A stretch of DNA of 64,000 nucleotides, from assembly GCF_003334405.1 (NCBI RefSeq), contig NZ_QOWM01000006.1; one strand, 5' to 3'. Position numbers and translations under genes: made by a program. The DNA comes from Escherichia coli (GTDB lineage: Bacteria; Pseudomonadota; Gammaproteobacteria; Enterobacterales; Enterobacteriaceae). Positions 37,392 to 38,640 of the stretch are shown here, one piece after another. The first letter of the stretch is position 1, and every line of letters starts with the position of its first letter. The notes beneath the pieces were generated by a model, which had not been told where the DNA came from, searched no databases, and worked only from the letters and a program-made list of their open reading frames with translations.

Positions 37392-37664
37392 AACTTCTAC
37401 CTTTCTACCCTGTCGTTAACGAAGCAGGCGATGCCTGCTTTGAGGAAATTCTCACGCAGTATTGCCCGATTTTTGTTTAGTGTCTACTCATCTGACGGCA
37501 TTTGCGTCAGCAGTTTGCGTACCGCGCCGAAGCGTGCCATGTATCGCCTGTAACGAATTGATATTTCTCTGAACGCTGCTCGGTAAACAATAAAGAGGTG
37601 GCTGACGATAGCGCGCCTTGACTGGATACTGCCTTCACGCAAAGCCACACGGAAGACAGGGAAG

Positions 37665-38567
37665 ATGGATGCACCGAGTACCACACCGCATGACGCGGTA
37701 TTTAAACAATTTTTAATGCATGCGGAGACGGCTCGCGACTTTCTGGAGATACATTTGCCAGTGGAATTACGCGAACTTTGTGACCTCAACACGCTTCATT
37801 TAGAGTCGGGGAGTTTCATTGAAGAGAGCCTGAAAGGACACAGCACGGACGTGCTCTATTCCGTGCAAATGCAGGGCAATCCCGGTTATCTGCATGTTGT
37901 GATTGAACACCAAAGCAAGCCGGATAAGAAAATGGCCTTTCGCATGATGCGTTATTCTATAGCCGCCATGCACCGGCATCTGGAGGCTGACCACGATAAG
38001 CTGCCGCTGGTGGTGCCGATACTGTTTTATCAGGGCGAGGCCACACCTTATCCGCTATCAATGTGCTGGTTTGATATGTTTTACTCGCCGGAGCTGGCGC
38101 GACGCGTCTATAACAGTCCTTTCCCGCTGGTGGATATCACCATCACACCGGATGACGAAATCATGCAACATCGGCGGATTGCGATTCTCGAACTACTGCA
38201 AAAACATATTCGCCAGCGCGACTTAATGTTATTGCTTGAGCAACTGGTCACGCTGATCGACGAAGGGTACACTAGCGGAAGTCAGTTAGTTGCCATGCAA
38301 AACTATATGCTGCAACGCGGTCATACTGAACAAGCGGATTTGTTTTACGGTGTGTTGAGAGACAGGGAAACGGGAGGCGAGTCTATGATGACGCTGGCGC
38401 AGTGGTTTGAAGAGAAAGGGATTGAGAAGGGGATTCAGCAGGGAAGACAGGAAGTAAGTCAGGAATTCGCCCAGCGTCTTCTGAGTAAAGGAATGTCTCG
38501 GGAAGACGTTGCAGAGATGGCAAATTTACCTCTTGCTGAGATTGATAAGGTAATTAACCTTATTTAA
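37665..38567 (+). CDS. rpnC: Recombination-promoting nuclease RpnC (YhgA/transposase_31-like PD-(D/E)XK family)
   Basis: 300-aa ORF recognised as YadD/RpnC; putative PD-(D/E)XK residues in ..TDVLY...VVIEHQSK.. Confidence 0.85.
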   Translation: MDAPSTTPHDAVFKQFLMHAETARDFLEIHLPVELRELCDLNTLHLESGSFIEESLKGHSTDVLYSVQMQGNPGYLHVVIEHQSKPDKKMAFRMMRYSIAAMHRHLEADHDKLPLVVPILFYQGEATPYPLSMCWFDMFYSPELARRVYNSPFPLVDITITPDDEIMQHRRIAILELLQKHIRQRDLMLLLEQLVTLIDEGYTSGSQLVAMQNYMLQRGHTEQADLFYGVLRDRETGGESMMTLAQWFEEKGIEKGIQQGRQEVSQEFAQRLLSKGMSREDVAEMANLPLAEIDKVINLI

Positions 38568-38640
38568 GTTACCTGTGTTATGACAGATGACGTGGGGTAA
38601 ATTAATAACTGGCGCCATCAGCCGTAGCGCCAGTTAAGTA

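Follow-up and report, generated by a model that had tools for sequence, protein, structure and literature searches.

Known Rpn systems and the pan cluster

Rpn proteins are not conventional transposases (PMC5350276, PMC10400941), and the function described in 2023 is that of a toxic nuclease whose antitoxin is encoded within its own gene, with a probable role in phage defense (PMC10400941). The closest described system to the one treated here is RpnC (YadD) of Escherichia coli K-12, which is the same gene, with 100% identical DNA and no difference. What has been published on RpnC (PMC5350276, PMC10400941) agrees with our sequence in the domain, the catalytic residues, the internal antitoxin start, and the KGIE repeats; its tail is described as the richest in repeats across E. 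coli strains (Zhong et al., PMC10400941). Next is RpnA (YhgA), the biochemically studied exemplar of the family, which has the same domain, the same residues one position further on (D11, D63, E82, Q84, R94, and D165), and the same RpnL/RpnS gene-within-gene plan, but which lies at another locus and has another tail sequence. RpnC is the weaker of the two. When overexpressed, it caused a 59% loss of viability, raised RecA-independent recombination 2.9-fold, compared with 49-fold for RpnA, and induced the SOS response late, later than RpnA did (PMC5350276).

Two broader classes of elements also resemble this locus in part. Like homing endonuclease genes, rpnC has precisely occupied and pristine empty alleles, without terminal repeats or target duplication. 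Unlike them, it lies between genes rather than in an intron or intein and is fixed rather than polymorphic; moreover, sequence-specific cleavage is not known for Rpn proteins, and RpnA is nonspecific in vitro. With type II toxin-antitoxin and defense systems, it shares a toxic nuclease neutralized by the direct binding of a small protein, a fast-diversifying interaction surface, and spare antitoxin copies made by duplication, whereas its antitoxin, unlike those of type II systems, is encoded inside the toxin gene and in the same frame. Unlike antiphage modules, Rpn proteins have no model in PADLOC 2.0.0, and their defense activity has been demonstrated only for a plasmid homologue, RpnP2 (PMC10400941).

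The position of rpnC between panC and panD is already known, since it was noted in 1996 and analyzed in 2017 and 2023. The original pan-cluster study with the extra open reading frame (ORF) is reportedly that of Merkel and Nichols, from 1996. That the original study noted an extra ORF in the cluster is stated by Kingston et al. (PMC5350276), whose Text S1 already contains a comparative genomic analysis of the panC-panD junction.

Organization of the locus

The window is the whole stretch of 64,000 nucleotides that was analyzed, and all positions refer to it. The following genes were identified around the junction.

37011-37391, minus strand: panD, aspartate 1-decarboxylase (ORF; TIGR00223, 228 bits, cut-off 106)
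37665-38567, plus strand: rpnC (yadD), encoding RpnC-L of 300 amino acids (ORF; TIGR01784 and PF04754 matches)
38641-39492, minus strand: panC, pantoate-beta-alanine ligase (ORF; TIGR00018, 439 bits)
39504-40298, minus strand: panB (ORF; TIGR00222, 441 bits)

The NCBIfam scores of panD, panC, and panB each exceeded the curated cut-off. An earlier note on this DNA had placed a plus-strand rpnC between panD and panC-panB on the minus strand, with gaps of about 270 and 70 bp; the noncoding DNA measured 273 bp on the 5' side of rpnC (37392-37664) and 73 bp on its 3' side (38568-38640). Positions 36800-39000 were 100% identical to E. coli K-12, in which the RefSeq name of the gene is rpnC. That name agrees with the earlier assignment of a PD-(D/E)XK nuclease gene of the Transposase_31 type, as do the matches of RpnC to the Rpn family model TIGR01784 (298 bits, cut-off 52) and to Pfam Transposase_31 (PF04754; residues 7-207 on model positions 1-201 of 203, E = 3e-87). 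An Rfam scan of positions 35000-41000 returned nothing meaningful.

RpnC as a candidate toxin with an internal antitoxin

RpnC residues D10, D62, E81, Q83, R93, and D164 are the counterparts of the RpnA residues whose catalytic roles rest on mutation tests (PMC5350276), and the PDDE motif is found at residues 162-165. The one-residue offset between RpnC and RpnA fits the NF007361 alignment, which pairs protein positions 5-292 with model positions 6-286. The catalytic residues were invariant across all aligned pan-locus alleles, and the nuclease domain had a dN/dS of 0.05 between K-12 and Escherichia albertii; purifying selection acts on this domain. A comparison of RpnC with PDB chains by sequence gave no match. 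Two further features lie within the 3' part of the gene.

38372-38567, plus strand: rpnC-S, a gene within the gene, 60 amino acids, in frame with RpnC-L (conserved Shine-Dalgarno sequence and ATG)
38412-38438, plus strand: four-residue repeats KGIE KGIQ, in 12-bp tandem units (direct repeat D18 at 38412-38435)

The Shine-Dalgarno sequence of rpnC-S (GGGAGG, 38372-38377) and the position of its ATG (38385) were kept in every Escherichia, Pseudocitrobacter, and Salmonella allele compared. RpnC-S is synthesized and works as an antitoxin, and the number of repeats determines the pairing of RpnC-S with RpnC-L (PMC10400941). We observed that the length of the repeat tract differs widely between alleles, with RpnC ranging from 296 to 314 amino acids among full-length E. 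coli and other Escherichia alleles. The repeats are of the KGIE, KGIQ, and GRQE types in Escherichia and of the QGMQ type in Pseudocitrobacter and Salmonella, and some strains carry a second copy of the rpnC tail downstream.

Following the literature, RpnC-L is a PD-(D/E)XK DNA endonuclease that is toxic if overexpressed, and RpnC-S, translated from the start at 38385, binds and neutralizes it, with the count of four-residue repeats setting the specificity of the pairing. By analogy with the plasmid Rpn system, the RpnC-L/RpnC-S pair may act as a toxin-antitoxin-type antiphage defense. In the published view, RpnC is a toxin with an internal antitoxin and a candidate for antiphage defense (PMC10400941), which the earlier note lacked. 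None of the models in PADLOC-DB 2.0.0, a library that predates or omits Rpn, fitted RpnC, and its tail gave only marginal matches to RmrA and C3a178 (E of about 1e-3 to 1e-4).

Boundaries of the inserted cassette

To map the junctions, occupied loci of Escherichia, Pseudocitrobacter, Salmonella diarizonae, and UBA5654 were compared with the empty loci of Citrobacter, Klebsiella, Raoultella, and Pluralibacter. The features delimited at the junctions and within the flanks are as follows.

37490-38643, plus strand: inserted cassette of about 1154 bp, made up of a 175-bp 5' flank, rpnC, and a 76-bp 3' flank (alignment of occupied and empty loci)
37392-37489, minus strand: panD promoter and leader, kept from the state before the insertion (promoter scan; conservation)
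37600-37630, plus strand: candidate rpnC promoter (CTGACG at 37602-37607, a 17-nt spacer, and GATACT at 37625-37630)
38606-38636, minus strand: hairpin with a perfect 10-bp stem, directly after the panC stop (terminator scan; inverted repeat I18)

In the empty sites of the four genera, panC ends in CAG TAG, followed by ACAggGGTTAAAAATCGGGCAATACTGCC, and its stop codon lies within the -35 box of panD; in Citrobacter, the junction DNA reads ...CAGTAGACAGGGGTTAAAAATC... The occupied loci were identical to one another at both junctions, with panC codon 283 followed directly by a new TAA or TGA at the left one and the cassette ending just before (C/G)AG TAGACA at the right one. Comparison of the panC tails placed the current panC stop of our sequence (TAA, 38641-38643) in the 3' flank of the cassette. 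The panD promoter (-35 TAGACA, 37486-37481; -10 AATACT, 37463-37458) belongs to a module common to empty and occupied sites in dozens of genera. Its leader region contains a palindrome (37441-37453) and a hairpin (37420-37441) that folds, with compensatory substitutions in its stem, in 35 of 35 species.

The 5' flank was homologous and of equal length across the occupied loci of Escherichia, Pseudocitrobacter, Salmonella diarizonae, and UBA5654, and GGCTGACG and GATACTGC are two of the few blocks in it that are kept between the Escherichia and the Salmonella/Pseudocitrobacter cassettes. The candidate rpnC promoter at 37600-37630 is proposed from these two blocks; a stringent promoter scan did not call it. 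On the other side, the hairpin at 38606-38636 is probably the panC terminator and possibly also serves rpnC; the Pseudocitrobacter and Salmonella cassettes have a homologous hairpin (CTGGCGC...GCGCCAG) in the same place.

The junctions suggest that the cassette landed exactly behind panC codon 283 and ahead of the final codon with its stop (CAG TAG), where the ancestral CAG TAG would have overlapped the -35 box of a separate panD promoter. It would have supplied panC with a new stop and a terminator-like hairpin while leaving the panD promoter and leader intact, so that both pan transcription units would still work. The earlier note had proposed that the insertion split an ancestral panBCD unit; the insertion is upheld, but not the breaking of an operon, since the panD promoter predates the insertion, which fell between two transcription units. 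The locus may be viewed as a clean natural case in which a toxic defense gene was absorbed harmlessly by a housekeeping cluster because it landed exactly between two transcription units.

The absence of indels from the 5' flank between genera also raised the idea of a small antisense gene there, either a 102-codon ORF (37484-37792, minus strand) or a frame of 18 to 26 codons; the short frame ends at the TAG of the panD -35 box. The idea was rejected, as several E. coli strains have an interrupted frame and Salmonella and Pseudocitrobacter lack a start codon for it, and its substitutions showed no third-position bias.

Distribution of the cassette

The earlier note had suggested comparing the panD-panC junction across Enterobacterales and had read rpnC as an old insertion into a once unbroken panB-panC-panD cluster. 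In a set of 80 species, 78 loci showed both panC and panD. In 67 of these, 34 to 290 bp separate the two genes and rpn is absent; in 10, the identical junction is occupied by an rpn gene or pseudogene, and the remaining locus, that of Salmonella arizonae, has a deletion remnant in a 418-bp panC-panD gap. As seen, panC directly adjoins panD in most Enterobacteriaceae, and the cassette of about 1.15 kb occurs at one junction only, the exact same one in Escherichia, Pseudocitrobacter, and some Salmonella. For the last genus, exact-protein look-ups with two PanD sequences returned diarizonae-like occupied loci and arizonae-type remnant loci only, and the junctions of Salmonella enterica LT2 and Salmonella bongori lay outside the comparison. 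The old-insertion reading is supported by these counts and has already been published (Kingston 2017; Zhong 2023).

Each of the six loci from Escherichia species carries the rpnC nuclease domain. Among 5426 complete E. coli genomes, 5420 hold this domain, the median copy number being one, and 5425 gave a match of some kind; an unoccupied site was not seen in any E. coli chromosome. Nor did these genomes contain extra or shifted chromosomal copies, the few additional places being plasmid-borne fragments.

An alternative is that the common ancestor of the Enterobacteriaceae already had rpnC at this site and that most genera then lost it. Loss by deletion does happen, as seen in the internal deletion of about 760 bp in S. 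arizonae, the pseudogene of UBA5654, and the 24-residue deletion of strain E69. Nevertheless, the empty sites of at least four genera share the compact arrangement, free of any cassette remnant and with the panC stop in the panD -35 box, which random deletions would not have recreated repeatedly. The extra spacer of Kluyvera (160 to 190 bp between panC and panD), considered as a possible remnant, is unrelated to the cassette, since its homology is confined to the panD promoter part. We consider ancestral presence followed by widespread loss very improbable.

Single or repeated entry of rpnC

On this evidence, we think it probable that rpnC is a fixed, nonmobile cassette of about 1.15 kb, encoding a toxin-antitoxin, that entered once between the pan transcription units. 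Entry into the pantothenate cluster would have occurred in an ancestor from that part of the Enterobacteriaceae to which Escherichia, Salmonella, and Pseudocitrobacter belong. For Kingston et al. (PMC5350276, Text S1), the deep division of the rpnC genes into an Escherichia and a Salmonella cluster reflected two introductions, and in 2017 they preferred independent, site-specific insertions into the same target, two or more in number, in the manner of a homing endonuclease. Several observations fit that preference. Between Escherichia and Salmonella/Pseudocitrobacter, Rpn is 57 to 63% identical overall, while PanC is 85 to 90% and PanD 96 to 98% identical. Furthermore, rpnC and its flanking genes group differently in Pseudocitrobacter, whose rpn nuclease domain is 75% identical to that of Salmonella and 71 to 72% identical to those of Escherichia and whose panB resembles the K-12 gene unusually closely (dS 0.68), and in strain FGI 57, in which panCD groups with Escherichia and rpnC with Salmonella (PMC5350276, Text S1). 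The coexistence of occupied and pristine empty alleles with nucleotide-identical junctions is also as expected from homing.

Against repeated insertion, both groups have homologous cassette flanks of the same length, and a flank homology search for a mobile unit found none of them beside plasmid rpn genes, which points to one cassette lineage. Likewise, the nuclease domains of pan-locus Rpn proteins are 70 to 75% identical to each other and 60 to 65% identical to those of the nearest plasmid Rpns. The excess divergence of rpn is modest at the DNA level, at 71 to 75% identity for the nuclease domain compared with 77 to 88% for neighboring genes, and a less constrained protein would account for it. 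Between K-12 and E. albertii, the dS of the nuclease domain (0.41) lay among the values of the flanking genes (0.26 to 0.75); between genera, dS exceeded 1.2 and synonymous sites are saturated, so the insertion cannot be dated from dS. In addition, RpnA cuts DNA in vitro with little or no sequence specificity (PMC5350276), and the complete E. coli genomes offered no unoccupied chromosome. Independent insertions thus appear unlikely to us, whereas the identical junctions and homologous flanks favor a single origin of the cassette. This is a small addition to the published work, and junctions defined to the nucleotide could help to choose between the one- and two-insertion models of 2017.

Evidence bearing on mobility

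The family names given by Pfam and TIGRFAM ("transposase_31," "putative transposase") point to a transposon, and rpn-family genes do occur on plasmids, in about 6.7% of plasmid records (4840 of 72,556). Moreover, a yadE'-panD-rpnC' fragment is present on about 33 conjugative plasmids. However, the breakpoint of this fragment is always the same and flanking chromosomal genes are part of it, which suggests that it was captured once and did not arise by transposition; in the chromosomes, rpnC is a single copy at one locus (5420 of 5426 genomes). The earlier note had seen no terminal inverted repeats by eye, and our inverted-repeat search had the same outcome: the two ends of the cassette, 37490 and 38643, are not paired by any such repeat, and the one strong inverted repeat in this region is the internal hairpin at 38606-38636. 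Its proposal to search the flanks for target-site duplications also gave nothing at the cassette ends, since in 12 of 12 occupied loci the best similarity between the left and right junctions was equaled by 11 to 100% of random windows. Two duplications suspected by eye, GTAATACTTAAC and GTAGACACTAAAC in E. coli and TGAATAGCC and TGTATAGAC in Salmonella, were rejected as not significant against random windows. We find it scarcely credible that rpnC belongs to the insertion sequences or transposons and still moves.

Sequence diversity around rpnC

The earlier note had further proposed that rpnC and its flanks act as a local recombination hotspot, and the RpnC nuclease acting near its own gene could make the pan locus one, as an added effect compatible with a single cassette. 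Among 11 E. coli strains, picked by similarity in this same pan region, nucleotide diversity was 0.011 to 0.018 in panD and its promoter, 0.05 to 0.06 in the 5' flank and the first 100 codons of rpnC, and 0.087 in rpnC-S. Part of the rise at 37490 simply marks the point where a constrained promoter gives way to an unconstrained spacer. The stimulation of RecA-independent recombination by overexpressed RpnC (2.9-fold; PMC5350276) and the break within rpnC of the plasmid-borne yadE'-panD-rpnC' fragment agree with a hotspot. Nevertheless, diversity does not peak at rpnC; within E. coli, synonymous divergence grows from panD by way of rpnC and panC to panB. The dS values from K-12 were 0.07 to 0.29 for the nuclease domain, 0.07 to 0.24 for panC, and 0.16 to 0.43 for panB, rising past rpnC, and diversity climbs in the direction of the hypervariable yad fimbrial genes and the yadC adhesin, whose identity between Escherichia lineages is as low as 35 to 62%. 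Hitchhiking with diversifying selection on the fimbrial genes would produce this pattern without RpnC. We regard an RpnC-driven hotspot as rather improbable, and a recombination hotspot at rpnC is not established.

A broader reading retains the single, locus-integrated insertion, with the panC stop codon and terminator coming from the cassette, and attributes both the discordant phylogenies and the steep rise in diversity from the cassette edge onward to repeated homologous replacement of the occupied allele between lineages and genera, which the RpnC nuclease may stimulate in cis; we give it a small chance. What does hold of the proposed instability concerns the gene's own end and one border: duplications of the rpnC tail and changes in repeat number are frequent, and an ERIC-like element lies at the left junction in some lineages.

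An rpn gene interrupts the pan cluster in some genera

Window positions 36800-39000 are 100% identical to E. coli K-12 strain ER3413. The ORF list, NCBIfam, Pfam and RefSeq agree in every detail with the layout in the earlier note, which placed plus-strand rpnC between minus-strand panD and panC-panB. Its ORF has non-coding flanks of 273 bp on the 5' side and 73 bp on the 3' side. The product belongs to the Rpn family by NCBIfam TIGR01784 (298 bits; cut-off 52), and Pfam Transposase_31 covers residues 7 to 207 (E = 3e-87).

Features of the locus (window coordinates)
35778-37007, plus: yadE (ORF list and sequence)
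37011-37391, minus: panD (ORF list; NCBIfam, well over curated cut-off)
37441-37453, minus: short palindrome at the predicted panD transcription start
37486-37458, minus: panD promoter, TAGACA, 17 nt spacer, AATACT (promoter scan of the window)
About 37490-38643: inserted cassette, 1154 bp (175 bp 5' flank, rpnC, 76 bp 3' flank)
37665-38567, plus: rpnC, 300-codon ORF (ORF list; named by RefSeq)
38385, plus: rpnC-S start ATG, with GGGAGG ahead at 38372-38377
38412-38438, plus: four-residue repeat tract KGIE KGIQ, differing widely in length among alleles
38606-38636, panC strand: 3'-flank hairpin, perfect 10 bp stem (called by terminator scan)
38641-39492, minus: panC (ORF list; NCBIfam, well over curated cut-off)
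39504-40298, minus: panB (ORF list; NCBIfam, well over curated cut-off)
40412-41650, minus: yadC, fimbrial adhesin gene (ORF list)

PanB, PanC, PanD, YadE and RpnC were located in panD neighbourhoods from 80 species-representative genomes, and panC and panD were both visible in 78 loci. The comparison bears out the proposed insertion into the pan cluster, as rpn genes occur there only in some genera: 67 of the 78 loci, including those of Citrobacter, Klebsiella, Raoultella, Kluyvera, Enterobacter, Pluralibacter, Lelliottia and Kosakonia, have a panC-panD gap of 34 to 290 bp and no rpn gene. rpnC is present in each of the six Escherichia species loci (E. albertii and E. whittamii among them), in gaps of 1195 to 1562 bp. 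An rpn gene occupies the identical place in two Pseudocitrobacter loci, in Salmonella diarizonae and in the metagenome-assembled genome UBA5654, with products 57 to 65% identical to RpnC. Decay of the cassette occurs in several lineages: the 418-bp gap of S. arizonae holds a cassette with an internal deletion of ~760 bp and both ends kept, the UBA5654 copy is a pseudogene, and strain E69 rpnC lacks 24 codons. The position of rpnC between panC and panD is real and already known, and the insertion reading is right but already published.

Other DNA was also seen in this interval. Five Kluyvera loci (L025, L028, L037, L041 and L044) have an unrelated GC-rich, hairpin-bearing spacer of about 160 to 190 bp between the panC stop and the panD promoter, and Raoultella and some Citrobacter have additional DNA between the leader hairpin and panD; therefore, the interval has changed several times independently.

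The cassette lies exactly between two transcription units

At the empty sites in Citrobacter, Klebsiella, Raoultella and Pluralibacter, the panC gene terminates in ...(V)(E/T)L-x-CAG-TAG, the stop codon being the first half of TAGACA. This is the -35 box of the conserved panD promoter module GTAGACAggGGTTAAAAATCGGGCAATACTGCC, behind which come the leader hairpin and panD ribosome-binding site. In every occupied locus, the first foreign bases are a new stop codon directly behind panC codon 283 (TAA in Escherichia; TGA in Pseudocitrobacter and Salmonella), and the foreign DNA stops directly ahead of (C/G)AG TAGACA; two Escherichia lineages (loci L002 and L007) retain CAGTAGACAC at this right junction. 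The cassette has thus landed exactly between two transcription units; it supplied panC with a new stop and, behind it, a terminator-like hairpin, leaving the panD promoter and leader untouched. The earlier statement that the insertion split an ancestral panBCD unit holds for gene order but is too strong for transcription, since panD was already driven by a separate promoter. What is new is only this map of the junctions at nucleotide resolution, which tilts toward one origin of the cassette.

The panD leader hairpin, AAAGCAGGCAUCGCCUGCUU followed by CGUUAAC (37420-37453, minus strand), forms in 35/35 Enterobacteriaceae leaders, with stems that differ in mutually compensating ways, and matches no Rfam family. 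It may have been the terminator of panBC in the ancestral state, or it may act as an attenuator behind the panD promoter.

rpnC behaves as a resident gene

An inverted-repeat search found none pairing the cassette ends, in agreement with the earlier inspection by eye, and the similarity of the two junctions, sought as a target-site duplication, was equalled by 11 to 100% of random windows. Of 5426 complete E. coli genomes, 5420 contain the nuclease domain (at least 80% coverage), and the median number of places per genome is one. In the K-12/E. albertii comparison, the domain has a dS of 0.41, inside the range of the flanking genes (0.26 to 0.75), and a dN/dS of 0.05. On these results, rpnC was already resident and under selection before the two species split, and its behaviour is not that of an insertion sequence, in line with published work on Rpn (PMC5350276; PMC10400941).

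Separately, a ~1 kb chromosomal fragment (yadE 3' end, intact panD and the first ~39 rpnC codons) is present on plasmid pBEC1-S17-ESBL-09_1 (L083:6001-6971) and about 33 other E. coli plasmids, which are conjugative and of 120 to 166 kb; it matches K-12 at 94.5 to 95% identity and invariably terminates at window 37782. On one plasmid, CP044307.1, the entire yadE'-panD-rpnC-panC' stretch is present, with 84% identity.

A single origin of the cassette is favoured

From 32 panCD segments, Kingston et al. favoured two separate rpnC introductions, listing alternatives (PMC5350276, Text S1). The cassettes of Escherichia, Pseudocitrobacter and Salmonella have in common the left junction, right junction, hairpin and 5' flank (conserved blocks GGCTGACG, GATACTGC and CAGTTTGCGTAC), and about 273 bp between the rpn and panD starts. 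No cassette-flank similarity was found beside the plasmid rpn genes of Yersinia, Serratia and Ewingella (53 to 56% protein identity), and nuclease-domain identity is 70 to 75% among pan-locus genes versus 60 to 65% to plasmid genes. Between genera, DNA identity is 71 to 75% for the rpn nuclease domain versus 77 to 88% for neighbouring genes, a modest excess divergence. Because of these shared junctions and flanks, the absence of the flanks at plasmid genes, the domain identities and the modest excess divergence, the sequence comparison favours a single origin. The cassette would have spread vertically, perhaps combined with homologous replacement of entire alleles.

A discordance is that Pseudocitrobacter rpn is slightly closer to the Salmonella type, yet panB of Pseudocitrobacter (L008:3092-3883) is no farther from K-12 (dS 0.68) than that of E. 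albertii (0.73). Because of saturation at synonymous sites in comparisons between genera, dS does not date the insertion. In yadE (35778-37007), K-12 DNA is only ~80% identical to four other Escherichia lineages and 87% identical to E. albertii. Together, the yadE and panB pattern is that of a mosaic region.

Nuclease residues, internal antitoxin and repeats

RpnC retains D10, D62, E81, Q83, R93 and the PDDE motif, shifted by one residue relative to RpnA, where mutation has shown the corresponding residues to be needed; overexpression of RpnC stimulates RecA-independent recombination 2.9-fold, reduces viability by 59% and leads to late SOS induction (PMC5350276). Zhong et al. demonstrated an internal start in every E. 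coli rpn gene, yielding a small C-terminal protein, RpnS; RpnC-L (full-length) and RpnC-S (the 60-residue antitoxin) are both produced, RpnC-S blocks RpnC-L only at equal four-residue repeat number, and a plasmid Rpn system protects against phage (PMC10400941). GGGAGG and the ATG are conserved, at an unchanged position, in every Escherichia, Pseudocitrobacter and Salmonella allele. Several E. coli strains have a second tail gene, complete or partial, downstream of rpnC, as Zhong et al. also reported (PMC10400941), and repeat slippage and duplication clearly make the rpnC tail unstable. PADLOC 2.0.0 contains no Rpn family model, and no PDB chain matched RpnC by sequence. The 19 nt ahead of the rpnC-L start, AGACAGGGAAGATGGATGC (37654-37672), and the rpnC-S start, AGACAGGGAAACGGGAGGC (38360-38378), are 79% identical, probably by chance.

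Diversity rises toward yadC

Nucleotide diversity in 11 E. coli strains (a biased sample, ten being taken across the similarity ranking of the same region) and dS against K-12
panD: diversity 0.018; dS 0-0.15
panD promoter: diversity 0.011
rpnC 5' flank: diversity 0.051
rpnC codons 1-100: diversity 0.058
rpnC nuclease domain: dS 0.07-0.29
rpnC-S: diversity 0.087
panC: diversity 0.043; dS 0.07-0.24
panB: diversity 0.061; dS 0.16-0.43

The dS climbs from panD to panB; diversity therefore increases toward yadC, with no peak at rpnC. YadC itself is only 35 to 62% identical between Escherichia lineages. The recombination hotspot suggested for rpnC is unproven and not favoured by this gradient, for which hitch-hiking on fimbrial genes, among the alternatives of Kingston et al. 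(PMC5350276, Text S1), accounts at least as well as an effect of RpnC would. The diversity of panC, panB and yadC resembles hitch-hiking driven by diversifying selection on the yad fimbrial operon. Within 38641-41650, panC and panB are unusually diverse in E. coli for housekeeping genes.

The left junction has in addition taken up small elements. An ERIC-like repeat with the core GTGAATCCCCAGGAGCTTACATAAGTAAGTGACTGGGGTGAGCG (2 to 3 mismatches) lies between the panC stop and the cassette hairpin in O157:H7 (L085:3330-3560), E. albertii and Escherichia sp. E1V33 (L001:4545-4760 and L005:2617-2760). In K-12, the element is absent from the left junction, and one is found at window 18494-18537.
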